From an uncultured virus (IMG/VR IMGVR_UViG_3300037507_001084) (Duplodnaviria; Heunggongvirae; Uroviricota; Caudoviricetes), in the IMG/VR virus record IMGVR_UViG_3300037507_001084: a stretch of DNA of 64,000 nt; one strand, given 5' to 3'. The position numbers and the translations under genes were made by a program. Under the pieces are notes generated by a model. The model was not told the origin of the DNA. It saw only the letters and a program-made list of their open reading frames with translations, and made no database searches. Shown here in pieces: positions 2,239 to 55,292 of the stretch (within the stretch, counting starts at the first letter, position 1; every line of letters begins with the position of its first letter).

Positions 2239-3895
2239 CGCAGTATATCTTGGTAATCCTAATTTAAAGAAAGCTAATACCGCCATTAGTTTTACAAAAG
2301 AACAAGTAGAAGAGTTCATCAAATGTAAAGATGATCCAGTTTACTTCGCAAAAAACTATGTAAAGATCATCTCACTCGATGAAGGTCTTGTTCCCTTTGA
2401 GATGTATGATTTTCAAGAGAAACTTATTGAAAATTTTCACAATCATAGATTTAATATTGCGAAACTTCCAAGACAGACTGGTAAATCTACCACTGTTATT
2501 TCATACCTACTTCATTACGCAGTATTCAACGACAATATTAAGATTGCTATTCTAGCAAACAAAGCAGAAACGTCAAGAGAACTTCTGTCTCGTTTACAGT
2601 TAGCATATGAAAATCTGCCCAAGTGGATGCAGCAAGGCATTGTAGCATGGAACAAAGGTTCCATGGAACTTGATAATGGTTCCAAGATTATTGCTGCTTC
2701 CACATCATCATCTGCTGTTCGAGGAAACTCTTTCAACATCATCTTCCTTGACGAGTTTGCGTTCGTTCCTAACCATATGGCGGAACAGTTCTTCTCGTCT
2801 GTATATCCTACTATCTCGTCTGGTAAAACAACAAAAGTTATTATCATTTCTACCCCACAGGGTATGAACATGTTCTACAAGCTGTGGCACGACGCAGAGC
2901 GCGGTAGGAACGGATATGTGCCACTTGAAGTTCACTGGAGCGCAGTTCCTGGTAGAGATGAGAAGTGGAAAGAAGAGACGATCAGGAACACCTCTGAGAG
3001 GCAGTTCACACAAGAGTTTGAATGTGAGTTCCTTGGATCGGTTGATACTTTGATCTCAGCGTCTAAGTTACGCTCGATGGTATTCGAAGATCCTATACAA
3101 GATAATAGTAAAGGATTAAAGGTATACGAGGAAGCAAAACCAGATCACGATTATATCATGACGGTTGACGTATCGCGGGGAACCAACAATGATTACTCTG
3201 CTTTTGTTGTATTTGATATCACCACACTACCTTGGAAGGTTGTTGCTAAATATCGAAATAACGAAATCAAACCTATCCTGTTTCCCAACATTATCGAACA
3301 GGTTGCCAAGAACTACAATAAAGCATACATCTTAGCGGAAGTCAATGATATTGGAGAACAGGTAACAAACATTCTCCATTATGATTTGGAGTATCCAAAC
3401 ATTTTGATGTGTGCCATGCGTGGTAGAGCAGGTCAAATTGTAGGTCAGGGATTTTCTGGCACCAAATCTCAACTTGGTCTAAAGATGTCAAAAGTTACTA
3501 AGAAGGTTGGATGTTCTAACTTAAAGACATTGATCGAAGATGATAAACTCCTAATCTCAGACTACGAAATCATCAGTGAGCTTACCACATTCATTCAGAA
3601 GAATCAATCTTTCGAAGCTGATGATGGATACAACGATGACCTTGTGATGTGTCTAGTTCTATTCTCGTGGTTAGCGGTTCAACCTTACTTTAGGGAGATG
3701 ACTGATAACGATGTTCGTAAACGCATCTACGAAGAACAGAAGAATCAAATCGAACAAGACATGGCACCGTTTGGATTTGTATCTGATGGTATTACAGATG
3801 CCGAAGAAAAATTTATTGATGAAGACGGAAACGTTTGGTACACCGATGGGTATGGCAATCCTTTTTCAGACGTAGAATACATGCTAGGGTTCTAA
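2231..3895 (+). CDS. gp17: terminase large subunit
   Basis: YLGNPNLK N-terminus, Walker A PRQTGKST, Walker B IIFLDEFAF, nuclease DDLVM. Confidence 0.97.
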   Translation: MSDAVYLGNPNLKKANTAISFTKEQVEEFIKCKDDPVYFAKNYVKIISLDEGLVPFEMYDFQEKLIENFHNHRFNIAKLPRQTGKSTTVISYLLHYAVFNDNIKIAILANKAETSRELLSRLQLAYENLPKWMQQGIVAWNKGSMELDNGSKIIAASTSSSAVRGNSFNIIFLDEFAFVPNHMAEQFFSSVYPTISSGKTTKVIIISTPQGMNMFYKLWHDAERGRNGYVPLEVHWSAVPGRDEKWKEETIRNTSERQFTQEFECEFLGSVDTLISASKLRSMVFEDPIQDNSKGLKVYEEAKPDHDYIMTVDVSRGTNNDYSAFVVFDITTLPWKVVAKYRNNEIKPILFPNIIEQVAKNYNKAYILAEVNDIGEQVTNILHYDLEYPNILMCAMRGRAGQIVGQGFSGTKSQLGLKMSKVTKKVGCSNLKTLIEDDKLLISDYEIISELTTFIQKNQSFEADDGYNDDLVMCLVLFSWLAVQPYFREMTDNDVRKRIYEEQKNQIEQDMAPFGFVSDGITDAEEKFIDEDGNVWYTDGYGNPFSDVEYMLGF

Positions 3896-45627: not shown

Positions 45628-45754
45628 ATGAATTCCTCACAATTGGGGATCATTCGTCATTATAACGTGAATGAAAATTAGAGCCCAGGAGATTGCCCCT
45701 TGAGAAAGGGGAAGTGCGCTTTCTCTATTGGGATGTAGAGTTCAATGTAAATTA

Positions 45755-46117
45755 ATGCTTCTTAAATCACTTTCGATTCTTGCCGTTGCTATTTCAGGAC
45801 TGGCACCCCTACAGGCAAAGGCAGCGAGCGGATGTTCCCTCGCATCACATTATGGAGTTGGTGACGGATATCATGGGCAGACGACTGCAAACGGCGAAAG
45901 ATACAATGCTTATGGCAAATCAGTCGCACACAAATGGCTTCCTTTCGGAACTAGATTAAGGGTTACAAATCAACGAAATGGCAAGACAGTGATTGTGCGT
46001 GTAAATGATCGCGGTCCCTACGTTGGAGGTAGAGATCTTGACTTGTCTTATGGTGCTTTCTCTTCTATCGCTCACCCAGGTCAAGGCGTTGCCAGCGTCT
46101 GCTATTCACGGGTTTGA
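45755..46117 (+). CDS. rlpA: RlpA-like (DPBB) lytic transglycosylase with a signal peptide
   Basis: ASHYG, TANGE, AHKWLPFGT, VRVNDRGPY, DLS. Confidence 0.88.
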   Translation: MLLKSLSILAVAISGLAPLQAKAASGCSLASHYGVGDGYHGQTTANGERYNAYGKSVAHKWLPFGTRLRVTNQRNGKTVIVRVNDRGPYVGGRDLDLSYGAFSSIAHPGQGVASVCYSRV

Positions 46118-46159
46118 ATAACTGAATAAATATTGGGGAGTGCTGCAGAACTCCCCTTT

Positions 46160-46561
46160 ATGTTTAACTTTCACATTGGCAAGCCCTCTAAAAAAACTAT
46201 TATAACAACCAGTATAGTATTATCTTCTATTATCGCAGCACTTTCACAATGTACAGGAATCCATGAAAACAATCTTTGGGATTTATTTGACGAGATTCAA
46301 AGAAAATATTTCCCACAAACTTCTATTAACAGGGTTATTACTGAAGACCCTGACAAAGTAAAACGTAGAGTAGAAAGAGATGTCACCAATGCTATCAATG
46401 ATTATTGGAGACAATCTGGTTTATCAAAAGCAGAAGTATACAAACCACGCTATATAGAAGAAGCAAATGACGAAACATTATGCTACAGTGATGAGTGTAA
46501 AGCACTCGCCCCTCCAATGAGACTCTGTGCTCCATGGCTTGACAACTGCCCTCAGCAGTGA
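46160..46561 (+). CDS. hypothetical protein with an N-terminal hydrophobic segment
   Basis: Late promoter AATAAATA upstream; Cys-rich C-terminus. Confidence 0.55.
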   Translation: MFNFHIGKPSKKTIITTSIVLSSIIAALSQCTGIHENNLWDLFDEIQRKYFPQTSINRVITEDPDKVKRRVERDVTNAINDYWRQSGLSKAEVYKPRYIEEANDETLCYSDECKALAPPMRLCAPWLDNCPQQ

Positions 46562-46567
46562 TATAAT
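46539..46567 (+). promoter_or_regulatory. sigma70 promoter at the start of the tRNA array
   Basis: TTGACA-17-TATAAT. Confidence 0.7.
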
Positions 46568-46579
46568 AATCCTACACAC

Positions 46580-46651
46580 GGGCTCATAGTTAAGCGGATA
46601 TAACTACCGCCTTCTAAGCGGTCGTCCCTGGTTCGATTCCAGGTGAGCCTG
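46580..46651 (+). tRNA. tRNA-Arg(UCU)
   Basis: Cloverleaf; ACCGC-CT TCT AA-GCGGT. Confidence 0.9.
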
Positions 46652-46691
46652 TTTCCCGTATAAATAGATTAGAATTATTTGGTCTAAGCAA

Positions 46692-47000
46692 ATGGGAAAA
46701 CCTTATAAACTGATGACCGAAGATGAGAAATCATCTTTCAATCAGTATTGTATTCAAAGATGGCAACAACGCAAACTTGATGCTGTAGAATACAAAGGTG
46801 GAAAGTGCGAACGTTGTGGGTATGATAAATACTCAGAGGTTTTAGAGTTCCACCATCTCGACCCTACACAAAAAGAAGCAGCTTGGAATAAGATGCGTCT
46901 TTGGAGTTGGGAAAAGATAATGACAGAACTAGACAAATGTGCTATACTTTGTGCTAACTGTCATCGTGAAGTTCACGTAGAACTTAGGCAGGGCGATTAG
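46692..47000 (+). CDS. HNH endonuclease
   Basis: GGKCERCGY...LEFHHLDP...LCANCHREVH; late promoter at 46658. Confidence 0.85.
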   Translation: MGKPYKLMTEDEKSSFNQYCIQRWQQRKLDAVEYKGGKCERCGYDKYSEVLEFHHLDPTQKEAAWNKMRLWSWEKIMTELDKCAILCANCHREVHVELRQGD

Positions 47001-47062
47001 CTCAGCGGTAGAGCTCTTGCCTTACAAGCAAGCTGTCACTGGTTCGATTCCAGTATCGCCCA
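46991..47062 (+). tRNA. tRNA-Val(UAC)
   Basis: CTTGC-CT TAC AA-GCAAG; acceptor GGGCGAT/ATCGCCC. Confidence 0.92.
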
Positions 47063-47070
47063 TATAAACT

Positions 47071-47298
47071 ATGAATACATATTATATTTCTTTAATACTA
47101 ATCTGTGCCATGATTTATATCATATGGCAGGATCCAAATGTTCCAGAGTATATTAATCTTAGATTAAAATTACTCCATATTAACTTCATTCGTTGGAACA
47201 TGGCAAGGAATATGAAACGACAACTTGATAAGGAATCAAAGAAAATGCAAAAAGAAATGATGGAATGGTTAAAAGAAAATGGCAAAGATAAGATGTAA
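47071..47298 (+). CDS. small membrane-anchored hypothetical protein
   Basis: N-terminal hydrophobic helix. Confidence 0.6.
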   Translation: MNTYYISLILICAMIYIIWQDPNVPEYINLRLKLLHINFIRWNMARNMKRQLDKESKKMQKEMMEWLKENGKDKM

Positions 47299-47536
47299 CG
47301 CATGTGGCGTAGAGATAGAAGTATACCAAGCAAATAAAAGTAAAGCGTGTGGTTGTGATAATCATACGCTTTTGAGGCTAGATAGGAATGGTCTTCCTAT
47401 CATTACAGGCAACGACCTTTCATTAGTAACTGCTATTGATGGGATCGGAAAACCGAAAGAAAAGAAGCTTGACATTCCTTTGGCATCAGGTTATACTAAA
47501 AGGATACCAAGGAAATTGGATTTTGAAATTCGTTGA
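47279..47536 (+). CDS. Cys-containing hypothetical protein
   Basis: RCNACG...CGCDN; RKLDFEIR tail. Confidence 0.65.
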   Translation: MAKIRCNACGVEIEVYQANKSKACGCDNHTLLRLDRNGLPIITGNDLSLVTAIDGIGKPKEKKLDIPLASGYTKRIPRKLDFEIR

Positions 47537-47580
47537 TTGGTATAAATAGGATAGAATAAACGTATTGTTTAAATAAAAAT

Positions 47581-47871
47581 ATGGCTTATCTAATTAGAGT
47601 AGGAGAAAACCCAACTTACTGGTCTGGCAATCCAGAAGCTGTTTTTGTAAATCAAGCTGCGGAAGCAAAAGAGTACGCTACCAAGAAAGAAGCAGAAAAA
47701 GAACTCAAGGAAATTGCTGAGTCTCATGGATATTCGACTCTTAATGCGGTAAAGTCTGAGGATGCTCTCTCGGTAGAACTTCCTGTAGTAGAAACAGAAG
47801 AAGTATCTGAAGAAACTGTGGTAGAAGAATCACCACTATCAGTAGAAGATCTAAGAAAACTAGCTTCTTGA
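47581..47871 (+). CDS. acidic hypothetical protein
   Basis: Late promoter TATAAATA at 47541. Confidence 0.65.
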   Translation: MAYLIRVGENPTYWSGNPEAVFVNQAAEAKEYATKKEAEKELKEIAESHGYSTLNAVKSEDALSVELPVVETEEVSEETVVEESPLSVEDLRKLAS

Positions 47872-47887
47872 TTTGGAGGAATTTATT

Positions 47888-48235
47888 ATGACATATATTG
47901 TTCGTGTTGTTGGTTATAATGGATACTGGACTGGTAATACCGAACCAGGAAAATTGTGGTCAACTAATATCGAAGAAGCTCAACAATTTGACAACAAAGA
48001 AGATCCACAAAAAATTGTTGACAGTGGAAACAACATGGAAGTGGTAGAATATTCTTCTGCCCTTCCAGATGTTGTTGAATTGAAATCTGCTCCTGATTGG
48101 GATGCGATTGATAAAGCAGCAAAAGAAATTGAAGAAAGAAAATTAAAACAAGAATTTGTTGATCTCTCTCCATCCGAGTTTGTTCAAGACTTCGATGAAT
48201 CAATTGACCAAGTTGATGTTGAAGTGATTGAGTGA
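47888..48235 (+). CDS. acidic hypothetical protein, apparent paralogue of the upstream gene
   Basis: GGAGG SD; MTYIVRV...YWTGN versus MAYLIRV...YWSGN. Confidence 0.65.
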   Translation: MTYIVRVVGYNGYWTGNTEPGKLWSTNIEEAQQFDNKEDPQKIVDSGNNMEVVEYSSALPDVVELKSAPDWDAIDKAAKEIEERKLKQEFVDLSPSEFVQDFDESIDQVDVEVIE

Positions 48236-48237
48236 TT

Positions 48238-48326
48238 GGAAGTGTGGCTGAGAGGTCTAAAGCAGCGGTTTGCTAAACCGCCGATGTCTTTATGGGCATC
48301 CGTTGGTTCGAATCCAACCACTTCCG
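48238..48326 (+). tRNA. tRNA-Ser(GCU)
   Basis: GCGGT-TT GCT AA-ACCGC; long variable arm. Confidence 0.92.
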
Positions 48327-48370
48327 TTGCCCATTACGGGCATGACATGTCGTTTAAACATTAAGAAACT

Positions 48371-49249
48371 ATGATGATTCGTTCATTTATTGCTGCTGGT
48401 GTTGCTGCTGCTTCTATTGCTGCTCCTGCCATGGCACAAGTTACCAGTGTGACTCAACTGAAAGATGTCCAACCTACTGACTGGTCTTATCAAGCTATCT
48501 CTAACCTGATCTCTCGTTACGGTTGTGTCGCTGGTTATCCTAACGGCACTTTCAAGCCTGGTGAACCTGCTTCTCGTGCTGAGCTCGCCGCTCTCACTAA
48601 CGCTTGCCTTGACCGTATCAGCGAGTATCAGAGCGCCGCTGACGCTGCTCTGGCTGCTGCTCTACGCGCTCAGTTTGCTAAGGAGATTGCTGCTACCAAC
48701 ACCCGCGTGAGCGCCCTTGAGGTCGCTGCTGCTCGCAAGGCACAGGGCGTTGGCAACTACGTTGGTCTCGGTGTGCTGCTGAATCAGCAAGGCGTTGCTG
48801 GTGCTGGTCAGACCGCTCAGAAGACTGTGGGTGGTGCTACCCTCCAGGCTCGCTATGCTGTGAAAAACTTCAGCAACCAGAATGCTGTGTCTATTCGTCC
48901 TTATCTGAATGCCGTTGCTGGTCCCTCTGGCAACATTGGCACTGCTGGTGGTGCTCTCGTCTCTTATGACTGGTCTATCGCTCGCAAGGCAGGTGTAAGC
49001 GCCGCTAACATCTATGCTGCTGCTGGTTATCAAGTGCCTTTTGTTAACAACTCTGATGCTAACTTCCAATCGGCAGTTGGTAATCGTGGACAAGCTGTGC
49101 TTGCTATTGGTCTTGAAGGTCGTATCACCAACTCCCTCGTTGGTTTTGCTGATCTGAAATTCCCTACCACCAACGCTGCTAACAGCTACGGTGCTACCAA
49201 CGGCACCTACTCGCCTGTGTTTACCACGGGTCTCGGCATCAAATTCTGA
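48371..49249 (+). CDS. SLH-domain outer-membrane protein (cyanobacterial porin-type N-terminus)
   Basis: Signal peptide; QLKDVQPTDWSYQA...YGCVAGYPNGTF...RAELAA; terminal Phe. Confidence 0.82.
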   Translation: MMIRSFIAAGVAAASIAAPAMAQVTSVTQLKDVQPTDWSYQAISNLISRYGCVAGYPNGTFKPGEPASRAELAALTNACLDRISEYQSAADAALAAALRAQFAKEIAATNTRVSALEVAAARKAQGVGNYVGLGVLLNQQGVAGAGQTAQKTVGGATLQARYAVKNFSNQNAVSIRPYLNAVAGPSGNIGTAGGALVSYDWSIARKAGVSAANIYAAAGYQVPFVNNSDANFQSAVGNRGQAVLAIGLEGRITNSLVGFADLKFPTTNAANSYGATNGTYSPVFTTGLGIKF

Positions 49250-49308
49250 TGACCGTGGGGGGTTGACAGACCCCCCAGACCTCCTATATAATATGGAGGT
49301 CAACAAAT

Positions 49309-49393
49309 GGAAGTGTGTCCGAGTGGTTGAAGGAACTTGTCTTGAAAACAAGCATGGTGAAAGCCATCGTGGGTTCGAATCCTACCACTTCCG
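49309..49393 (+). tRNA. tRNA-Ser(UGA)
   Basis: CTTGT-CT TGA AA-ACAAG; long variable arm. Confidence 0.92.
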
Positions 49394-49489
49394 TTGCTAC
49401 TTGCGCTGGAGCTGATAATCCAGAATGCCGTAGCAAGATAGAGGGTAAGCCTCTGTTATATCCTTGAGGTATATTACGCTTACTCCATC
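49394..49489 (+). repeat. 96-nt structured repeat, copy 1 (candidate ncRNA)
   Basis: 93/96 identical to 52998-53093. Confidence 0.9.
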
Positions 49490-49491
49490 AA

Positions 49492-49565
49492 CGGTGTGTA
49501 GCGCAGCTTGGTAGCGCAACTGCTTTGGGAGCAGAAGGTCGCAGGTTCAAATCCTGCCACGCCGA
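49492..49565 (+). tRNA. tRNA-Pro(UGG)
   Basis: CTGC-TT TGG GA-GCAG; acceptor CGGTGTG/CACGCCG. Confidence 0.9.
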
Positions 49566-49586
49566 TTCTTCTTTTAGGAGACATTA

Positions 49587-49859
49587 ATGATTTCGCAACT
49601 GGTTATTTACACAAGAGATAACTGTGAATATTGTCGTAAGCTCAAGGTCATCCTTGATAGTTTTACTGTCAAATACACGCAGTATAAACTGGATGTTGAC
49701 TTCAATAGGGAAGCATTCTATAATAAGTTTGGTGAAGGTGCTACTTTTCCTCGTGTGACTCTTGATGGTCATCTGATGGGAGGATGTAATGAAACCATCG
49801 AATATTTAACTAGTATCGGTTGCCTACAAGAAGAAAAAGACATGGAGTGTATGGTATGA
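49587..49859 (+). CDS. glutaredoxin
   Basis: CEYC, TFPRV, GGC; AGGAG SD. Confidence 0.9.
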   Translation: MISQLVIYTRDNCEYCRKLKVILDSFTVKYTQYKLDVDFNREAFYNKFGEGATFPRVTLDGHLMGGCNETIEYLTSIGCLQEEKDMECMV

Positions 49860-50029
49860 AAACGATTACAGAAGAAACTTTTTGCCACGACTTTGATGAG
49901 ATTATGGATGCTGTGATGCTCAATAAAGAAAGTTTTATTATTACGACTGCTAATGGTTCTGATGTTATGCTTCTTCCATATTCATACTATGAGCGAATAC
50001 AAGGGGAATTAACTCAGTTGGTAGAGTAG
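49856..50029 (+). CDS. Phd/YefM-like small protein
   Basis: MKTITEETFCHDFDEIMDAV...FIITT...VMLLPYSYYER pattern. Confidence 0.5.
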   Translation: MKTITEETFCHDFDEIMDAVMLNKESFIITTANGSDVMLLPYSYYERIQGELTQLVE

Positions 50030-50075
50030 CGCCTTTGCAAGGCGAATGTCAGCGGTTCGAGTCCGCTATTCTCCA
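50003..50075 (+). tRNA. tRNA-Ala(UGC)
   Basis: CGCC-TT TGC AA-GGCG; G3:U70 acceptor. Confidence 0.9.
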
Positions 50076-50082
50076 TATTTAC

Positions 50083-50175
50083 GGGGGTGTAGCTCAATTG
50101 GCAGAGCGGAAAGCTTATACCTTTCGTATACGGCAGATTACCGTGCGGTTGGGGGTTCGAGTCCCTCCGCCCCTA
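50083..50175 (+). tRNA. tRNA-Ile(UAU) with a long variable arm
   Basis: GAAAG-CT TAT AC-CTTTC; ~25-nt variable region with a stem. Confidence 0.75.
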
Positions 50176-50199
50176 TATAAACAAACACATGAGGTTATT

Positions 50200-50403
50200 A
50201 TGGGTTACGAAACACTTACTGAATTTGAGCGAGCCCTTGCTAGATTCGGTGACAAAGTAGAACTTATCGTTGGTTTAGAAGTTGGTGGTAAAATGAATGC
50301 TGATGAAGCATACAAAGAGATTAAAGACATGATGAAGGAACTAAAAAAACTTCGCAAGCAGCATATCAAATCTGGTAAAGACCTCGACAATTTTGAACTA
50401 TGA
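50200..50403 (+). CDS. hypothetical protein
   Basis: GAGG SD; FGDKVELIVGLEVGGKM. Confidence 0.7.
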   Translation: MGYETLTEFERALARFGDKVELIVGLEVGGKMNADEAYKEIKDMMKELKKLRKQHIKSGKDLDNFEL

Positions 50404-50987
50404 TTTCACAAGGATTAGTTGAAACTGAACACGAAGACCCTGGATTTGAGATTACTCATCTATCATTCAGGAGACGGGAATCTTCTCACCTCTATGGTGG
50501 TCCCGTACATTACTACATTGGCAATATTGTATTCCGTTTGACTAACGAGGATGCCAAAGGTCGCATGGAATATATCATGGCAAAGAATGAGCGAGTTCGT
50601 GTAGCACCAGATGAAGAGTTACATGAAAAGTATTATGATGGTCTTCATTTCAAGTTTGATACAGAAGAAAGGGAAGAAGATGCTGTGAAAGATGAAGATG
50701 GACAAAAGTTTTATCCATTAGAAATCATCAACAAACATGGCATCAAAGATGAAGATGTATTCATTTGGGGATACCGTCGTAACATGGATCCACTTCACGA
50801 TTTCATTCAATACAATGAGAAGTTTGATTGTTACCGAATGCACGAATACTTCCAAGACACCCCAGTAGTTCGTGGTATAATCCAGTATCTACAAGACATG
50901 AAAGATGGTAAACCCAATCCGAGTCGTACAGTCTATCACGAACAGTTCCTCGCAACGCTCACAAATCTCTGTTGGTGGTGGGACTAG
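50400..50987 (+). CDS. hypothetical protein
   Basis: ATGA coupling; WWWD C-terminus. Confidence 0.7.
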   Translation: MISQGLVETEHEDPGFEITHLSFRRRESSHLYGGPVHYYIGNIVFRLTNEDAKGRMEYIMAKNERVRVAPDEELHEKYYDGLHFKFDTEEREEDAVKDEDGQKFYPLEIINKHGIKDEDVFIWGYRRNMDPLHDFIQYNEKFDCYRMHEYFQDTPVVRGIIQYLQDMKDGKPNPSRTVYHEQFLATLTNLCWWWD

Positions 50988-51079
50988 AATCTGTTCCAAG
51001 TGCCACACCGAGCAACCCCTTGACAAGGACCACTACCAAGTGGTAAAATACTTTCGCACAGGATTCTCCTACTACTGTA

Positions 51080-51349
51080 ATGAGTGTAACAAACCCAAAC
51101 CGCGTGAAGACCATTCTTGATCGTTTCCCTTATCGCTACGTTCAAGCAGGCATCCTGGAGATTAACGGCAAACCAGATTATCGAATTCAGAAGATGTGTT
51201 CGTTTACTGGTCGTTACCGTGACATGTATCTCTGTGATAACGAAATGCAGTTTATGACAGCGATTGAGGATTTTGAGTATACTAAGTGGCTTGACCCAGA
51301 TACAGTTCCATGCTATATTAAAGGAGATGACGATGATGAAGATGAATGA
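51080..51349 (+). CDS. conserved cyanophage hypothetical protein
   Basis: RFPYRYV...NGKPDYRIQK...YLCDN...KWLDP. Confidence 0.7.
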   Translation: MSVTNPNRVKTILDRFPYRYVQAGILEINGKPDYRIQKMCSFTGRYRDMYLCDNEMQFMTAIEDFEYTKWLDPDTVPCYIKGDDDDEDE

Positions 51350-51707
51350 CTCAGTAAAGTATCAACTTGAGCGAGCAGAAGATGCTCTACGCACAGCACT
51401 TAAGTTTGCTGATAAAGAAAGTGTTTATGTAATCTCTGCGATTTCTAAAGCATTGATTGAAATTGACAATACGATGTTTGCTGAGCGCATTGAAGCAGCT
51501 GCTAAAGAAAGGGGCGGTTCCGCAGTGGAAGGTTTGATTTCTATTGACAAAACCAAAAGAGAAGATGGCAAAGTACAATATGATTTTAAGTATGCCAGCA
51601 CTCCTGTAAAGTTTAATGAGCATATGAATGTATTTGCTCCTTATACATATTATACAGAGTCACGGACGGACTATAACAGTACTGGTGGAGTCAATGTTAC
51701 CCTTTGA
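51333..51707 (+). CDS. hypothetical protein (start approximate)
   Basis: AAGGAG SD at 51321. Confidence 0.55.
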   Translation: MMKMNDSVKYQLERAEDALRTALKFADKESVYVISAISKALIEIDNTMFAERIEAAAKERGGSAVEGLISIDKTKREDGKVQYDFKYASTPVKFNEHMNVFAPYTYYTESRTDYNSTGGVNVTL

Positions 51708-51717
51708 ATGCTTAGGT

Positions 51718-51912
51718 ATGAATCCTGTTAAGATGAGAATTGTTGAAAAACTTGACAACGATGATGAAGTTATTACTTACTTCGATGTTTTGGAAGTGGA
51801 AGACAAATATTATTATGTCTATAATGAAGTAAACCACGGACCTTTCGACGATTTTGAAAAAGCAGTAGAAGCTGCATACGAGGATTTGATTCCTCAACCT
51901 GTCTCGGAATGA
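51718..51912 (+). CDS. hypothetical protein (start approximate)
   Basis: HGPFDDFEKAVEAA. Confidence 0.5.
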   Translation: MNPVKMRIVEKLDNDDEVITYFDVLEVEDKYYYVYNEVNHGPFDDFEKAVEAAYEDLIPQPVSE

Positions 51913-52044
51913 CACTAAACTTGCCCTGGTCGGGTGAAGTCCCCCTTCATGAGTTTCCAGTTTCTCTCAAAAACTGGTGGTGCGGATGGGGTTACTCCCG
52001 CCCAGTTTCCTGCCTCTGGTCAAAGGGCAGGTGGCGAGCCGAGC
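51901..52044 (+). ncRNA. manA-like structured RNA (tandem pseudoknot units)
   Basis: GAG/CTC with loop CCAGTT:AACTGG; CCAG/CTGG with loop CCTGCCT:GGGCAGG; next to tRNAs; family name is from recall. Confidence 0.6.
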
Positions 52045-52095
52045 AACGGGGGGATTGACAACCCCCACTTCCCTCATATATAATATGGGGGTCAA

Positions 52096-52172
52096 CGCGG
52101 GATGGAACAGTCTGGTAGTTCAGCGGTCTCATAAGCCGCAGGTCGTGGGTTCAAATCCCACTCCCGCCCCCA
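52096..52172 (+). tRNA. tRNA-Met(CAU), initiator-like, with encoded CCA
   Basis: CGCGGGA start with unpaired 1:72; CT CAT AA loop. Confidence 0.85.
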
Positions 52173-52173
52173 C

Positions 52174-52254
52174 GTCGCTGTGGCGGAATTGGTAGACGCG
52201 CTGGGTTTAGGTTCCAGTGTTTTTAACGTGAAGGTTCAAGTCCTTTCAGCGACA
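52174..52254 (+). tRNA. tRNA-Leu(UAG)
   Basis: CTGGG-TT TAG GT-TCCAG. Confidence 0.9.
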
Positions 52255-52493
52255 TTGGTAGTCGTTAGGCAGATAGCCTAGAAAGACGCCAACTATCTGG
52301 CCAGGTAGTATTAAGTTAGCCTAGTCCGAGATTGGCACGGTCGTTATGATATGCTCAAACAGATTGCCTTTCGCAATCAAGCCTCTATCACGCAATCAAA
52401 GGCATGAAAAACTGGAGATTGCAACCCAATATGTTGGGTTTGCTCAAAACTACATGGTATCGTAGCAGATACATAGTGTAGCAGAGAGCATCT

Positions 52494-52565
52494 GCGGGGT
52501 TAGTTCAGCGGTAGAACGCTATCCTTCCAAGTTAGATGTCGTCGGTTCGATTCCGATACCCCGCT
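52494..52565 (+). tRNA. tRNA-Gly(UCC)
   Basis: CT TCC AA loop; GCGGGGT/ACCCCGC. Confidence 0.9.
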
Positions 52566-52587
52566 CTTATCCTTGAGGATAAATAAC

Positions 52588-52758
52588 ATGTCACTTATTT
52601 CACAAAGAGACAGAGAAGTTGCCATAGCAGCTCTTGAAAAATATGTTGCCGACGCAGAGAATACTGAGTATTATCTGGGCACACCAAATCATTCGTCATT
52701 TGAAATCAATGCCCTTCTCAACTGGATTAGACTTGAATATTTCAAACATGAAAATTAA
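52588..52758 (+). CDS. hypothetical protein
   Basis: MSLISQRDR...ALLNWIRLE. Confidence 0.6.
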   Translation: MSLISQRDREVAIAALEKYVADAENTEYYLGTPNHSSFEINALLNWIRLEYFKHEN

Positions 52759-52918
52759 TCTATGGTATTGTGCTATTGTAAAGCAATGGCGCTGGTCTCT
52801 TACCGATAACCATCGCCCAATGGTTAGACAAGAAAGTGGTCAACAACCACATCTACGTGATGCTATGAATGACATAGCAAATACTGTAGAATACATGATG
52901 GATTGTAAGCAATCCTGA
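52748..52918 (+). CDS. hypothetical protein
   Basis: MKINLWYC...QWRWSL...ESGQQ..LRDAM.DIA.TVE. Confidence 0.65.
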   Translation: MKINLWYCAIVKQWRWSLTDNHRPMVRQESGQQPHLRDAMNDIANTVEYMMDCKQS

Positions 52919-52924
52919 TTTCAT

Positions 52925-52997
52925 TCCCTTATAGCTCAATTGGCAGAGCACGGAGCTGTTAACTCTGGGGTTCCTGGTTCGAGTCCAGGTGGGGGAG
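52925..52997 (+). tRNA. tRNA-Asn(GUU)
   Basis: CGGAG-CT GTT AA-CTCTG. Confidence 0.9.
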
Positions 52998-53093
52998 TTG
53001 CTACTTGCGCTGGAGCTGATAATCCAGAATGCCGTAGCGAGATAGAGGGTAAGCCTCTGTTACATCCTTGAGGTGTATTACGCTTACTCCATC
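52998..53093 (+). repeat. 96-nt structured repeat, copy 2 (candidate ncRNA)
   Basis: Near-identical to 49394-49489. Confidence 0.9.
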
Positions 53094-53347
53094 TAAACTC
53101 TTATAAATAAACACTAAAGGTCGAACATCATGACTAACTTCAGCAAGCAAATTGAGATTTTTATGGAAAGCGATTGCCGTTATTGGCATATTGCTCAGGC
53201 CCCCGTGCTTGCTCATAAGTGGAAACGATGACCGACATCTGACACATAAGCAAGATTTATCAGGGGGGCAGTTGACAAAACCGCCCCCCTATTTTATTGT
53301 AGATACATCGGTGGGAGACCCACCAGCACCTTGACAATTTAACTCTT

Positions 53348-53419
53348 GGGTCTGTAACTCAACGGTAGAGTAACTGGCTTTTAACCAGCAAGTTGTGGGT
53401 TCGAATCCCGCCAGACCCA
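53348..53419 (+). tRNA. tRNA-Lys(UUU)
   Basis: CTGG-CT TTT AA-CCAG. Confidence 0.9.
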
Positions 53420-53422
53420 TAT

Positions 53423-53513
53423 GAGAGAGTGGCTACTGTTGGCAATACGTGTGGCTGCGGTCTGTAAAACCGTTACATAAGAACCATCGGGGGTTCAATT
53501 CCCTCCTCTCTCA
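53423..53513 (+). tRNA. tRNA-Tyr(GUA) with an enlarged D-arm
   Basis: GCGGT-CT GTA AA-ACCGT; GAGAGAG/CTCTCTC. Confidence 0.8.
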
Positions 53514-53517
53514 CCTT

Positions 53518-53591
53518 GACCCATTAGTCTAGCGGTCTATGACGCCACCCTGTCACGGTGGAGATCACGGGTTCGAATCCCGTATGGGTCG
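53518..53591 (+). tRNA. tRNA-Asp(GUC)
   Basis: CCACC-CT GTC AC-GGTGG. Confidence 0.92.
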
Positions 53592-53769
53592 TTGAGAGTC
53601 AGTATTCTAACTCTCACGCATTTCTTAGAGTTTGCCAGTGTGTAGAGAAATGTTGTAGCAACAACTGGAATTGGGGAGGGATTTCTAACCACCATCGGAT
53701 GATGGCAGGATTCATAAGGCTACGAAGCGTAATCCGTAAGCAACTTCGTGTGGGATACCCCTCCCATCT

Positions 53770-53843
53770 GGTCCCATCGTCTAGTCGGCCTAGGACAACA
53801 CTCTTTCACAGTGTAGACACGGGTTCGAATCCCGTTGGGACTA
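53770..53843 (+). tRNA. tRNA-Glu(UUC)
   Basis: ACACT-CT TTC AC-AGTGT. Confidence 0.92.
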
Positions 53844-53846
53844 TCT

Positions 53847-53919
53847 CGGGGAGTAGCTCAGTTGGTAGAGCACATGTCTGAAGAACATGGTGTCGGTGGT
53901 TCAACTCCACCCTCTTCGA
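53847..53919 (+). tRNA. tRNA-Phe(GAA)
   Basis: CATGT-CT GAA GA-ACATG. Confidence 0.88.
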
Positions 53920-53923
53920 CCTT

Positions 53924-53995
53924 GGAACCGTAGCTCAGTGGTAGAGCACTCGGCTGATAACCGAGCGGTCACAAGTTCAAATCTTGTCGGTTCCA
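53924..53995 (+). tRNA. tRNA-Ile(GAU)
   Basis: CTCGG-CT GAT AA-CCGAG. Confidence 0.92.
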
Positions 53996-53998
53996 CTT

Positions 53999-54088
53999 GG
54001 GAGAGCACCTTGGATGGTGGGTACGACGGTATCAGAGACGGTTCGATTCCGTTCATTGGCAATGGTGGTTCGATTCCACCCTCTCCCA
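53999..54088 (+). ncRNA. tRNA-like RNA with two T-arms and no recognisable anticodon arm
   Basis: Acceptor GGGAGAG/CTCTCCC+A; GACGG-TTCGATT-CCGTT and GGTGG-TTCGATT-CCACC. Confidence 0.65.
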
Positions 54089-54092
54089 ACTT

Positions 54093-54166
54093 GGCAGTAT
54101 AGCTCAGTCTGGCAGAGCACGGGTCTCATATTCCTATGGTCGGTAGTTCAAATCTACCTACTGCCT
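54093..54166 (+). tRNA. tRNA(CAU), Met or Ile2, with a weak anticodon stem
   Basis: GGCAGTA/TACTGCC; CT CAT AT loop. Confidence 0.7.
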
Positions 54167-54167
54167 T

Positions 54168-54238
54168 GTGTCGTTAGTCTAATGGTAAGACAGGAGATTG
54201 TGGTTCTCTACATGAGGGTTCGATTCCCTCACGACACC
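54168..54238 (+). tRNA. tRNA-His(GUG)
   Basis: GGAGA-TT GTG GT-TCTCT; C73. Confidence 0.88.
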
Positions 54239-54240
54239 CC

Positions 54241-54312
54241 GCCCCTATAGCTCAGTGGTAGAGCAACTCACTAGTAATGAGTAGGTCGTTGGTTCAAATC
54301 CGACTGAGGGCT
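54241..54312 (+). tRNA. tRNA-Thr(AGU)
   Basis: ACTCA-CT AGT AA-TGAGT. Confidence 0.85.
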
Positions 54313-54384
54313 TCTGAGGTCGCCAAGCGGTAAGGCAGCGGGTTTTGGTCCCGCCATTCGTGGGTTCGAATCCTACCCTCAGAA
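54313..54384 (+). tRNA. tRNA-Gln(UUG)
   Basis: GCGGG-TT TTG GT-CCCGC. Confidence 0.9.
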
Positions 54385-54387
54385 TGT

Positions 54388-54459
54388 GTTGGGTTGGTGT
54401 AATTGGTAACATCTTGGTCTCCAAAACCAAAGTTCAGAGTTCAAGTCTCTGGCCCTTCG
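54388..54459 (+). tRNA. tRNA-Trp(CCA)
   Basis: TTGGT-CT CCA AA-ACCAA; two U-U mismatches in the acceptor stem. Confidence 0.8.
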
Positions 54460-54462
54460 CCT

Positions 54463-54537
54463 ACTCTCTTAGCTCAGTGGATATAGAGCACTTGACTACG
54501 GATCAAGGTGTCGTAGGTTCGAATCCTACAGAGAGTG
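54463..54537 (+). tRNA. tRNA-Arg(ACG)
   Basis: CTTGA-CT ACG GA-TCAAG. Confidence 0.9.
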
Positions 54538-54541
54538 TTTG

Positions 54542-54555
54542 GTATTGAATGTTAC
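54542..54555. promoter_or_regulatory. NtcA box
   Basis: GTA-TTGAATGT-TAC (GTA-N8-TAC) about 25 nt upstream of the riboswitch. Confidence 0.55.
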
Positions 54556-54578
54556 AATCTCAATATCATATATAAAAT

Positions 54579-54660
54579 ACGTTCATCCCTATGGGACGGA
54601 AGTAAGTCGCGGAACGGAACGTTCATTCGCTATAGCGAACGCAAACGACCGAAGGAACGC
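54579..54660 (+). ncRNA. glutamine riboswitch (glnA motif) with an insertion in P3
   Basis: CGTTCA-hairpin-CGGAAGTA...GAAGGAACGC upstream of a DUF4278 ORF. Confidence 0.8.
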
Positions 54661-54692
54661 TCTTTAACCTAAACCATTAAGGAGAAAACCTA

Positions 54693-54854
54693 ATGTCACA
54701 AGCAACTTATCGTGGTTGTCAGTATAATACTGATACCGCCAAGCAAGAATATCAACGCTGGTATTTGCAAACTCACGCACCAGCTCACCCAACCAATAAA
54801 TATCGTGGTGTTGAGTATCGCCCTTGTAATAATAACAAGGAGGTAACACAATGA
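54693..54854 (+). CDS. DUF4278-family small protein (53 aa; not in the ORF track)
   Basis: AAGGAG SD; ATYRGCQY...KYRGVEY. Confidence 0.8.
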   Translation: MSQATYRGCQYNTDTAKQEYQRWYLQTHAPAHPTNKYRGVEYRPCNNNKEVTQ

Positions 54855-54937
54855 ATTGGTTACTAGTTATTCGCAAACAAATTGAAAAGCAAAGAAAACT
54901 TCAAGAAGCTCAATATCATATGGCAACTCTTGGATAA
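54851..54937 (+). CDS. 28-aa peptide MNWLLVIRKQIEKQRKLQEAQYHMATLG
   Basis: GGAGG SD; ATGA coupling. Confidence 0.6.
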   Translation: MNWLLVIRKQIEKQRKLQEAQYHMATLG

Positions 54938-54942
54938 TTTTA

Positions 54943-54967
54943 AAGGGGGCATATGCCCCCTTTTTTT
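54943..54967 (+). terminator. intrinsic terminator between convergent units
   Basis: GGGGGC-ATAT-GCCCCC followed by T7. Confidence 0.85.
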
Positions 54968-55292
54968 AATCTCTTTGTCTCCAGTCTTCTGGTTTGTCTC
55001 TACCTTCAGAGAAGAAATCAACGATGTCATCTACAGAATCAAATCTTCTGACACCAAATCTTTCGTTACCCAATCCACCGATATCAAGTTGATTTAGAAA
55101 ATCATCCATGTCACCATCTTGCATGTCTGGATTTTCTGCCTTCCGTCTTGCTTGACGAAGCATTGTGCCAGCAGTGCGATTTGCTTTAGCTAGTTTTTCT
55201 GCCCAAATCATATCTTCTAAACCTACCGCTTCGTGTAAGATAATCTTTCTGCAGATTTCTTCTAAGCGTAGACGATATTGTGTAGAGAGCAT
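54966..55292 (-). CDS. conserved cyanophage hypothetical protein
   Basis: MLSTQYRLRLEEIC...DMIWAEKLAKAN...DWRQRD; GGAG SD. Confidence 0.75.
   Translation of the reverse strand: MLSTQYRLRLEEICRKIILHEAVGLEDMIWAEKLAKANRTAGTMLRQARRKAENPDMQDGDMDDFLNQLDIGGLGNERFGVRRFDSVDDIVDFFSEGRDKPEDWRQRD

Follow-up and report, generated by a model that had tools for sequence, protein, structure and literature searches.

Two independent structured RNA modules fused in a duplicated element of a T4-like cyanophage tRNA array

The tRNA array and its duplicated element

The window analysed here, a 64,000-nucleotide stretch of DNA from an uncultured virus (IMG/VR IMGVR_UViG_3300037507_001084), carries a T4-like cyanophage tRNA array with 24 tRNAs. 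A repeat search of the window finds one sequence twice in this array, at 49393-49489 and 52997-53093 (97 nt, 97% identity, equivalent to three mismatches). The element proper has 96 bases, 49394-49489 in copy 1 and 52998-53093 in copy 2; the duplication described in the initial annotation is confirmed, as is its placement, with the first base of each copy directly 3' of a tRNA. The features of both copies are collected in Table 1. The upstream promoter, located inside a repeated element (49257-49304), is predicted to drive tRNA-Ser, D1, D2, tRNA-Pro and nrdC. Copy 2 has no tRNA directly 3'; its D2 module is followed by TATAAATA (53102-53109) and a 33-aa ORF (53130-53231). Seven terminator-like sites occur in 48200-53400, none of them within either copy, and the element is not an intrinsic terminator, a GC-rich hairpin with a U run behind it. 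A consensus scan finds no sigma-70-type promoter inside it. Hairpin-plus-promoter cassettes are present nearby.

Table 1. Features of the two copies and their surroundings in the window
Feature	Position	Strand	Details
Consensus sigma-70-type promoter (TTGACA, 18 nt, TATAAT)	49263..49292	+	12/12 hexamer matches
tRNA-Ser(UGA)	49309..49393	+	Rfam tRNA 57.3 bits; ARAGORN 49308-49394; discriminator base 49393
D1 copy 1	49394..49436	+	43 nt; model R1 63.9 bits, E 1.3e-17; covariation in alignments A1, A5
D2 copy 1	49437..49489	+	53 nt; model R2 80.6 bits, E 5.7e-21; covariation in alignment A2
tRNA-Pro(UGG)	49492..49565	+	ARAGORN and Rfam tRNA; begins 2 nt past D2 end
Second consensus promoter	52055..52084	+	12/12 hexamer matches; upstream of the tRNA-Met ... 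tRNA-Asn run ending in copy 2
tRNA-Asn(GUU)	52925..52997	+	Rfam tRNA 60.5 bits; ARAGORN 52924-52998
D1 copy 2	52998..53040	+	model R1 62.5 bits, E 3.6e-17; U.G at 52999/53039 vs U-A in copy 1
D2 copy 2	53041..53093	+	model R2 79.3 bits, E 1.4e-20; C-G at 53063/53075 vs U-A in copy 1

Reading the two copies side by side bears out the remark that their three differences all preserve pairing. A at 49435 against G at 53039 turns U-A into U.G in the 7-bp stem TTGCTAC/GTAGCAA, and T at 49459 against C at 53063, together with A at 49471 against G at 53075, turns U-A into C-G in the TATATC/GGTATA hairpin. Folding energies are -32.1 and -34.0 kcal/mol for copies 1 and 2 (z -2.7 and -3.4 versus shuffles). 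The minus strand of the element folds comparably (z -3.5), so that the strand is not identifiable from energy alone. It is identified by conserved G.U pairs, which would become C.A mismatches on the opposite strand. These pairs, and covariation reaching far beyond the two copies, uphold the proposal of a functional structured noncoding RNA on the plus strand.

The initial annotation as a whole is partly supported. It took the element for a single two-domain RNA of 96 nt; instead, D1 and D2 form separate modules, found more often apart than together. What is duplicated here joins two independent structured RNA modules, both conserved, both on the plus strand and matched by no described RNA family.

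Structure and conserved bases of the modules

D1 is an interrupted hairpin. In copy 1 its outer stem pairs 49394-49400 with 49430-49436 (7 bp), the internal loop places UUGCG opposite AAUGCC and is invariant, and the inner hairpin, previously noted as CTGGA-GCTGATAA-TCCAG and present in the window, reads CUGGA-GCUGAUAA-UCCAG as RNA. For 48 unique sequences chosen without regard to the outer stem (from 90 D1-like matches among 121 hairpin-anchored ones), 96.9% of cells are paired and six of the seven outer pairs have changed on both sides. The covariation score is 0.439 versus 0.168 for shuffles, and none of 500 shuffles reached 0.439. Pair 14-35 is G.U in 31/31. When the search is run without a loop constraint, at least six of the seven outer pairs form in 108 of the 121 D1 matches, and 106 matches carry GAUAA in the terminal loop, where it is invariant. 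Most of these copies (76/106) have the loop AAAGAUAAA on a stem of 4 bp. Both window copies have the GCUGAUAA loop, and the syntenic tRNA-Asn copy in a relative (locus L194) has AAAGAUAAA.

D2 is a long hairpin with GAU/AUC closing pairs. Copy 1 contains helices P1 (49443-49450 with 49478-49485) and P2 (49457-49462 with 49468-49473) and an internal loop in which CUC plus CUGU lie opposite UUAC. The hairpin originally drawn for this part, AGAGG-GTAAG-CCTCT, can be formed in the window, but in 43 of 59 relatives the middle pair does not form, and the hairpin has no compensatory change. The pairing offered beside it as an alternative, GUAAG with CUUAC (GGGTAAGC with GCTTACTC), turns out to be the conserved helix of D2, with seven of eight pairs changed on both sides across 59 sequences. 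That alignment is 98.8% paired, and besides these P1 pairs one P2 pair has changed on both sides. Pair 9-51 is G.U in 43/59 and pair 26-36 is U.G in 45/59; the 5' GAU is paired with the module's own 3' AUC in 55/59. The ends read GAUAGAG ... CCAUC, and CNCUGU faces UCAC or UUAC; these bases are fixed. Covariation in wider alignments, suggested earlier as a check, is strong for both modules. The helices of D1 and D2 need pairing only: their sequence drifts with compensation, and the unpaired nucleotides are fixed.

Distribution, boundaries and nearest known RNAs

Each module occurs in at least 120 viral contigs, joined or apart. Of 100 loci that D2 retrieved, 11 also have D1, and of 100 that the D1 pattern retrieved, 13 also have D2. 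A strict D1 pattern matched one contig among 185,579 species genomes, in a phage context (tRNA-Asp-D1-tRNA-Glu), and by this search D1 appears to be phage-specific. The flanking tRNAs differ from phage to phage, and the distribution is patchy and modular.

The start of D1 lies -3 to +4 nt from the ARAGORN tRNA 3' end in 75 of 91 unique contexts (-1 to +1 in 67). D1 leads straight into D2 in 31/93 unique contexts and ends within 8 nt of the next tRNA in 28/93; for example, it is found between tRNA-Asp (0 nt) and tRNA-Glu (3-4 nt) and between tRNA-Ala (1 nt) and tRNA-Asn (4-5 nt). D2 ends 0-8 nt ahead of a tRNA in 64/107 unique contexts. It starts 5-8 nt past the -10 box of a TTGAYN-N15-19-TANNNT promoter in 28/128 contexts, and is preceded by D1 in 30/128 and directly by a tRNA in 4/128. 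In 7-8 of the 42 unique contexts with no close downstream tRNA, D2 stands ahead of a small ORF and a CA-rich leader containing a Shine-Dalgarno site. The module ends coincide with tRNA processing sites, in line with the idea that the element is released by tRNA 3' processing. That idea does not cover D2 in most relatives, where the module sits at a predicted transcription start and ends just before a tRNA. The four metatranscriptome runs compared consist of assembled contigs of 90-95% likeness, from which starts, ends and strand are unreadable.

In the marine relatives S-RSM4 and S-WAM2, a module-free gap of 3-4 nt separates tRNA-Ser(TGA) from tRNA-Pro(TGG). Models R1 and R2 find nothing in five of five other complete cyanophage genomes with tRNA arrays; in the control for this search D2 was recovered in 5/5 and D1 in 2/5 genomes known to hold them. 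Because the same Ser/Pro junction is module-free in the marine relatives, the modules look like inserted cargo and not like processing signals. D1 and D2 thus look like accessory cargo in the tRNA arrays of some T4-like cyanophages (Kyanoviridae).

The Rfam comparison that had been recommended matched neither module to a described family. Scanning 46000-55000 against Rfam 15 with E up to 10 produced 58 matches, and no match overlaps either copy; the gathering-threshold scan of the whole window returned tRNAs, wcaG and the glutamine riboswitch only, and in relatives there was no match at E up to 0.1 on D1 or D2. The judgement by eye that HDV/theta and hammerhead cores do not fit agrees with the HDV-like, hammerhead, hatchet, pistol and twister models, all without a match. 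The HDV-like fold is a nested double pseudoknot (P1, P1.1, P2, P3, P4) in which the 3' strand of P3 leads directly into that of P1. D1 has no such arrangement: between its inner hairpin and the 3' strand of its outer stem stands AAUGCC, a conserved stretch of six nucleotides, and no downstream strand pairs with UUGCG. The hammerhead, a three-way junction with a CUGANGA plus GAAA core, is likewise rejected; CUGAUGA is confined to the terminal loop of certain D2 variants, and the window copies lack it. Neither module is a tRNA or tRNA-like RNA by the Rfam tRNA model or by ARAGORN in standard and mitochondrial modes, with a single odd call on copy 2 at a lowered 80% threshold only. The tRNA-like traits of D1 are limited to its 7-bp outer stem and tRNA-like spacing.

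The T4 stable RNA species 1 and 2 (rnaC/rnaD), stable RNAs of unknown function, resemble the modules as small RNAs within a T4-type phage tRNA cluster on the tRNA strand. In T4 the order is tRNA-Arg, 1 nt, rnaD, 6 nt, rnaC; in the window it is tRNA-Ser, 0 nt, D1-D2, 2 nt, tRNA-Pro. The rnaD/rnaC spacing next to tRNA-Arg suggests ends set by tRNA processing, as proposed here for D1 and D2. In contrast to the modules (43 and 53 nt), rnaC and rnaD are 119 and 139 nt, and rnaC ends in a T-arm-like hairpin that D1 and D2 lack. Homology was rejected: with filters off, R1 and R2 have no match in 2909-3172 of the T4 tRNA region (L247), and the best match elsewhere in that region is a partial hairpin (E 0.011).

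The abiF RNA motif (RF03085, a 37-position model) has no match in the window. In relatives it lies 4-5 nt upstream of tRNAs (44.8-55.7 bits; loci L002, L003, L165, L178), as a separate module beside D1 or D2: an abiF-like motif follows D2 in L003, L178 and L224 and D1 in L012. Like D1 and D2 it is a small hairpin module (37 nt) of these cyanophage arrays, placed at a point from which tRNA processing would free it. It differs from them in sequence and structure and in having a known partner: it is described as an antitoxin that binds and neutralises the AbiF toxin (HEPN) (bioRxiv 10.1101/2025.04.15.648962; PMC12737573).

Possible roles

What the data show are the sequence, structure and boundaries of the modules, together with their family distribution and accessory status. 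The best explanation is that the D1/D2 fusion is independent structured RNA cargo that would be excised by tRNA processing, persist and act in trans, an explanation with about an even chance of being correct. The modules would be co-transcribed with tRNAs from early-type promoters. Cleavage at the 3' end of the upstream tRNA by host RNase Z or RNase P, and by RNase P at the 5' end of the downstream one, would give discrete small RNAs of ~43 nt (D1), ~53-55 nt (D2) or, when fused as in the window, ~96 nt. Excision is proposed because every module end falls where a tRNA is processed or a transcript starts. There is no known nuclease site between D1 and D2, so the fused form may persist as one RNA. 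The fixed unpaired bases, set against helices that drift, suggest that a specific partner, protein or RNA, recognises the modules. Most likely they are stable RNAs that act in trans, for instance as a protein-binding decoy or sponge, possibly directed at host defence. The abiF RNA in the same position may serve as a precedent for trans action, linked by co-location only. D2 is single-copy in 5/5 isolates, and so not a general leader, which is no proof of trans action.

RNase P, RNase Z or RNase E also frees functional small RNAs from tRNA precursors, or from tRNA-like ones, in the case of E. coli 3'ETS-leuZ, the MHV68 tRNA-miRNA and mascRNA, all from other organisms and unrelated to D1/D2 in sequence. 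The first, a tRNA-operon spacer RNA, works by pairing to other small RNAs; we know of no such target for D1 or D2.

A rather unlikely alternative is that the modules act in cis on processing or stability, D1 as a tRNA-sized hairpin whose 7-bp acceptor-like stem lets RNase P set the upstream tRNA 3' end or controls RNase Z access, and D2 as a base-paired 5' leader that shields the primary transcript from 5'-end-dependent RNases or aids RNase P on the first tRNA. The length of the D1 outer stem and its tRNA-like slot and spacing are in keeping with this, as are the D2 starts just past -10 boxes and the GAU/AUC end pairing. D2 also precedes mRNA leaders, and an ORF follows window copy 2, an arrangement equally compatible with a trans role and with a cis role at the 5' end of a transcript. 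However, S-RSM4 and S-WAM2 process the Ser/Pro junction with a short spacer alone, and the five other complete genomes with tRNA arrays do without both modules. A simple protective hairpin has no need of invariant loop nucleotides, such phages have many promoters for their one D2, and D1 is unrecognised as tRNA-like by ARAGORN or the Rfam tRNA model.

A special case of trans action, the anticodon-loop decoy raised in the initial annotation, is improbable. D1 would mimic the anticodon arm of tRNA-Ile(GAU) and bind an enzyme reading positions 34-38, e.g., a synthetase, modification enzyme or anticodon nuclease. As first reported, the D1 loop CTGATAA of the window is identical to the anticodon loop of its own tRNA-Ile(GAU) (repeat row 53930-53984). 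G34, A35, U36, A37 and A38 are anticodon-loop identity elements of E. coli tRNA-Ile, which favours the idea together with the GAUAA of the 106 copies. That part stands; the tRNA-like context does not, since the commonest loop, AAAGAUAAA, has A where tRNAs carry C32-U33, the loop has 8-9 nt and not 7, there is no cloverleaf, and no candidate partner was found.

The suggestion of a ribozyme is not supported. D1 or D1+D2 would then be a new self-cleaving class cutting at its own 5' end to free the tRNA 3' end, which is very improbable. CCA could not be added to a tRNA that ends in a 2',3'-cyclic phosphate, D1 is mostly found without D2, and as a single interrupted hairpin it has no second strand for an HDV-type double pseudoknot. 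In its favour are the invariant unpaired nucleotides and the position directly after a phage tRNA, where theta (HDV-like) ribozymes are postulated to process the tRNA 3' trailer (PMC10879173). Theta ribozymes are associated with phage tRNA genes and reported from gut Caudoviricetes only (PMC10879173); unlike them, D1 matches no HDV-family model and is dispensable at the same junction in relatives, and no Rfam ribozyme model matches over the region at E up to 10.

Least of all do we expect a DNA-level element or evolutionary debris (a recombination cassette, decayed tRNA or protein-binding DNA site): the patchy distribution with varied flanking tRNAs, copies homogenised within a genome (as the shared window loop against that of L194 suggests) and the cassettes close by would fit, but the consensus scans find neither promoter nor terminator, compensatory changes and conserved G.U pairs are signatures of RNA on the tRNA strand, and loops conserved over more than 100 contigs indicate purifying selection and not decay.

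Two modules in the tRNA array

From 46.5 to 54.5 kb the window carries an array of 24 tRNA genes, each encoded on the plus strand. The nearest database matches to the window are Synechococcus phages (T4-like, Kyanoviridae), and by megablast no isolate covers more than 16% of 48000-54600. The duplicated element described in the initial annotation is real: a repeat search recovered 49393-49489 and 52997-53093, 97 nt long and 97% identical. Both copies do start right after a tRNA, the first after the discriminator of tRNA-Ser(UGA) and the second directly after tRNA-Asn(GUU), and pairing is kept at all three positions where they differ, one U-A pair becoming U.G and one C-G. Copy 1 ends 2 nt before tRNA-Pro(UGG); a small ORF lies downstream of copy 2.

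This element had been proposed to be one RNA with two domains. In relatives it resolves into separate modules, the 43-nt D1 and the 53-nt D2, each of which is also found without the other. For example, among 50,697 phage records searched with blastn, five cyanophage species match the second half only, and in four of these the first half is either not at that place or located elsewhere; S-RIM50 is matched by the first half only. In S-RIM8, D1 follows tRNA-Thr, and D2 is found some 230 nt beyond it, immediately before tRNA-Ala. The order in S-SZBM1 is D2, then an abiF motif and tRNA-Ala, with D1 between tRNA-Ala and tRNA-Asn. Pattern scans located each module in at least 120 IMG/VR loci. Among the matches listed, D1 is present in 11 of 100 loci retrieved with D2, and D2 in 13 of 100 loci retrieved by the D1 pattern, only about one third of which are true D1. 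The covariance models of the modules each give exactly two strong matches in the window, at 63.9 and 62.5 bits for D1 and 80.6 and 79.3 bits for D2; the next-best matches there have E values of 0.09 and 0.34. The rarer GCUGAUAA loop is found in both D1 copies of the window, and the window's D2 copies are more alike than either is to its syntenic counterpart in relatives (L194, L060). This similarity suggests homogenisation of the copies within the genome.

Features of the tRNA array in the window and in loci of relatives carrying array sequence (L-numbers)
Feature	Location	Remarks
D1, copies 1 and 2	49394-49436; 52998-53040	43 nt
D2, copies 1 and 2	49437-49489; 53041-53093	53 nt
Copy difference 1	49435 A / 53039 G	U-A to U.G
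Copy differences 2 and 3	49459 T / 53063 C with 49471 A / 53075 G	U-A to C-G
Consensus sigma-70-type promoter	49263-49292	upstream of tRNA run with copy 1
Consensus sigma-70-type promoter	52055-52084	upstream of tRNA run with copy 2
wcaG RNA	51949-52045	93.5 bits; just before second promoter cassette
Glutamine riboswitch aptamer	54578-54663	41.9 bits; directly after last tRNA of array
ORF, DPBB lytic-transglycosylase-like domain	45728-46117	interleaved with tRNAs
ORF, HNH endonuclease	46692-47000	interleaved with tRNAs
ORF, SLH-domain protein	48371-49249	interleaved with tRNAs
ORF, glutaredoxin NrdC	49587-49859	interleaved with tRNAs
Unusual tRNA call, Ile(UAU)	50083-50175	93 nt
Unusual tRNA call, Arg(GCG)	53423-53515	93 nt
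Unusual tRNA call, Ser(CGA)	54015-54088	anticodon at position 30; weak tRNA-Sec score, 21.5 bits
abiF RNA motifs in relatives	L003 1568-1604; L002 1358-1394; L165 227-263; L178 447-483	RF03085
~90-nt module in relatives	L129, L134, L137, L144, L161, L165, L166, L192, L202, L215, L230, L241, L242	

Structure and covariation

In D1 an outer stem of 7 bp is followed by UU, then by a GCG/UGC helix in which AA is bulged, and finally by a hairpin of 4-5 bp. The first alignment was pre-filtered for pairing, and the test was repeated on an unfiltered set anchored on the inner hairpin sequence only; of 121 matches listed, 90 had D1-like inner flanks, and 48 of these were unique. In these 48 sequences (among the matches listed) 96.9% of cells are paired and six of the seven outer pairs are altered on both sides, so that the covariation noted between the two copies extends to a wider alignment. 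The covariation score was 0.439, compared with 0.168 in shuffles; it was reached by none of 500 shuffles, and slid controls gave at most 0.194. The inner G-C and C-G pairs are invariant, hence neither supported nor contradicted by covariation, while pair 14-35 is G.U in 38 of the 48 sequences, A-U in 7 and unpaired in 3. When the loop was left unconstrained, at least six of the seven outer pairs were present in 108 of the 121 matches listed and GAUAA was found in the loop of 106, with AAAGAUAAA in 76, GCUGAUAA in 22 and other variants in 8. The rest of the matches listed are GC-rich chance matches.

D2 (53-55 nt) is closed by three GAU/AUC pairs, followed by an AGA/C asymmetric loop and the 8-bp helix P1. 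Beyond P1 is an internal loop of C-N-C, then U-A and G-Y pairs and U.U, and the apex is P2, a helix of 6 bp whose terminal loop varies. A GAUAG/CUGUU pseudoknot may also form in D2. Covariation holds in the wider alignment here as well: in 59 sequences among the matches listed, 98.8% of cells are paired, seven of the eight pairs in P1 and one pair in P2 are altered on both sides, and all five covariation measures exceed all 500 shuffles. Since the P1 region lay outside the search pattern, this signal was not built in by the search. The AGAGG/CCUCU hairpin drawn in the initial annotation has to be given up, its middle pair being unpaired in 43 of the 59 listed sequences and showing no compensatory change. 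In a divergent D2 copy (L035), P2 is swapped for an unrelated hairpin and the flanks and internal loop are kept, which suggests that these form the functional core. A match of the D2 loop UUAUGAG to the complement of the tRNA-Met anticodon loop was also considered and rejected, because the AUG is missing from short-loop variants, including those of the window.

Both modules contain conserved G.U pairs, which assign the RNA to the strand that encodes the tRNAs. D1 and D2 are plus-strand structured RNAs under purifying selection, in which the helices need only pairing and the unpaired nucleotides are fixed. These structural and family assignments are near certain.

Neighbourhood and distribution

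Collapsing identical contexts left 93 for D1 and 129 for D2 among the matches listed. D1 starts within -3 to +4 nt of a tRNA 3' end called by ARAGORN in 75 of the 91 listed contexts with enough upstream sequence, and within -1 to +1 nt in 67 of those 75; in 15 others no tRNA is called within 110 nt, and in one the distance exceeds 5 nt. A variety of tRNAs stand upstream, including Arg(UCU) (22), Asp (11), Asn (10) and Thr (8) in the contexts listed. Downstream, D1 runs straight into D2 in 31 of the 93 contexts listed, reaches the next tRNA within 8 nt in 28, and is followed by other sequence in 34.

D2 ends 0-8 nt before a tRNA in 64 of 107 contexts listed. Upstream of it, in 128 contexts listed, are D1 (30), a TTGAYN-N15-19-TANNNT promoter (28), a TA-rich box without a -35 element (41, of which 29 have a tRNA and a short covarying hairpin just upstream), a tRNA directly (4) or something else (25). 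In the 28 contexts with a promoter, the -10 box ends 5-8 nt upstream of D2, which would thus be the first sequence transcribed. Where no tRNA is close downstream, other modules follow, including abiF motifs and a tRNA missed by ARAGORN, and in 7-8 of 42 such unique contexts (among those listed) D2 stands before a CA-rich mRNA leader. The ends of D1 and D2 fall at tRNA ends or at predicted starts of transcription. A consensus scan found no promoter-like or terminator-like sites within either copy in the window.

Other conserved elements occur at these loci. In 13 unique contexts among those listed, D2 and the next tRNA are separated by a module of about 90 nt that starts with GUAGGAAGUGCAA and terminates in CCCUCCUACCA or a near variant of it; this module has no Rfam match in the two loci L129 and L165. 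L001 (1350-1423), L004 (1552-1624) and, in IMG/VR, several loci contain a tRNA-like element, CUGGUAGUCUAUUGGUAAGGAC..., that ARAGORN reports as Leu(CAA) or as a tRNA whose anticodon has 2 nt; in L004 it scores 28.8 bits with the Rfam tRNA model, just below the threshold of 29. At many D2 loci and in S-PM2 (L491 101-118), tRNA-Arg(UCU) or tRNA-Asp is immediately followed by a short covarying hairpin (UGGAG, 5 nt, CUCCA; or UGAAG ... CUUCA); outside S-PM2, AUAUAUAAAAGU comes next, and after it D2.

Both modules have an accessory distribution and are confined to phages, the prokaryotic genomes having been scanned with the D1 pattern. D2 is single-copy in all five complete genomes that carry it, two of which have D1, and both modules are absent from S-PM2, S-RSM4, S-WAM2, DSL-LC02 and S-H9-2. 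In S-RSM4 and S-WAM2, tRNA-Ser(TGA) and tRNA-Pro(TGG) are separated by 3-4 nt, upstream of transaldolase, and in S-WAM2 a glutaredoxin gene is annotated further on. This is the junction of the window minus the 96-nt insert, so the modules are not needed for maturation of the flanking tRNAs. Among 185,579 prokaryotic species genomes, the strict D1 pattern occurs in one contig, which looks phage-derived, with a phage-type tRNA-Asp-D1-tRNA-Glu context. Nine metatranscriptome runs contained 5-10% of sampled words; the four examined are assembled contigs of relatives, mostly of 90-95% likeness, that carry no ends, strand or level. In some of these contigs the sequence departs from that of the window just after tRNA-Ser and tRNA-Asn, showing only that relatives differ there.

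Possible roles and known RNAs

Small stable RNAs in phage tRNA clusters have been known since species 1 and 2 of T4; to our knowledge, their function has never been worked out. D1 and D2 add two compact, covariation-rich families to this problem. Each is present in at least 120 contigs of uncultivated cyanophages, and both also occur in isolates with culturable hosts; their fixed nucleotides are clear and open to mutation.

From their positions, the modules are probably excised as small RNAs. Host RNase Z or RNase P would cut at the 3' end of the upstream tRNA and RNase P at the 5' end of the downstream tRNA, which in the window would yield a single fused RNA of about 96 nt. The freed RNAs would act on a partner through their fixed nucleotides; such a role in trans has about an even chance of being correct. 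It is favoured because the modules are dispensable for neighbouring tRNAs, because they are single or low copy, and because abiF RNA uses the same position. Within cyanophage arrays the abiF motifs, at 44.8-55.7 bits, are located 4-5 nt before tRNAs and immediately next to D1 or D2. The four motifs in relatives have no annotated abiF gene nearby, and the window has no abiF motif. The abiF RNA is known to bind the AbiF toxin and neutralise it (bioRxiv 10.1101/2025.04.15.648962; PMC12737573). The phage-borne motifs may be antitoxin decoys, the apparent link to D1 and D2 being co-location only. Action of D2 in cis, as a 5' leader, remains a serious rival to a role in trans, since D2 also precedes mRNAs.

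An unlikely form of action in trans is that D1 and D2 are phage RNA decoys (pseudo-antitoxins or sponges) whose fixed unpaired nucleotides are displayed to an RNA-binding defence protein of the host, with tRNA arrays as the launch pad. The target could be, e.g., a HEPN-type or anticodon-targeting RNase, and D1 would present GAUAA, the nucleotides at positions 34-38 of tRNA-Ile(GAU). RNase P and RNase Z would then free a set of anti-defence RNAs (D1, D2, abiF RNA and others) alongside the tRNAs. The position shared with the abiF antitoxin RNA suggests that tRNA arrays may deliver anti-defence small RNAs besides tRNAs. If true, the reading of many large-phage tRNA clusters would change; at minimum, there are two new RNA families for Rfam and for cyanophage annotation.

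Neither module matches a family described in Rfam 15: an E-value scan of the region and a gathering scan of the window found nothing on D1 or D2, and an E-value scan of 11 relatives' loci gave no match to them. Theta ribozymes share the association with phage tRNAs (PMC10879173), but differ from D1 and D2 in both model and topology. The earlier judgement by eye that HDV/theta and hammerhead cores do not fit is borne out, and a ribozyme of these or other families was rejected on the same two grounds. D1 is tRNA-like only in its 7-bp stem and spacing; a tRNA or armless tRNA was rejected, ARAGORN returning nothing at default thresholds in standard, mitochondrial or mammalian-mitochondrial modes. 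In the closest known arrangement, that of T4, a gap of 1 nt separates tRNA-Arg from rnaD and one of 6 nt separates rnaD from rnaC; no homology to these two RNAs was found for either module. A full-text literature search found no published description of D1 or D2. In the S-CREM1 genome paper, the Rfam-derived RNAs listed are only abiF, wcaG, manA and glnA, without D2. PMC10690425 is a catalogue of 10,006 viral candidate RNAs; four D1/D2 motif strings are absent from six of its nine supplementary files, and this csRNA catalogue might hold the modules under unnamed ids.

Further observations concern the promoters. The octamer TATAAATA at 53102-53109, the T4 late-promoter consensus, lies 9 nt beyond D2 copy 2 and precedes an ORF of 33 aa (53130-53231) that has neither a Pfam nor a PHROG match; the small ORF after D2 in L138 (476-679) is likewise without a PHROG match. 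Cassettes of 81% identity (49257-49304 and 52049-52096) lie directly upstream of tRNA-Ser and tRNA-Met, each placing the -35 TTGACA in the loop of one hairpin (G6/C6) and the -10 TATAAT in that of another. They resemble the promoter-early stem-loop cassettes known from T4-type phages. At 53262-53300 there is a third GC hairpin, which contains TTGACA and is followed by a T-run, and promoter spacers upstream of D2 in relatives also have covarying palindromes.
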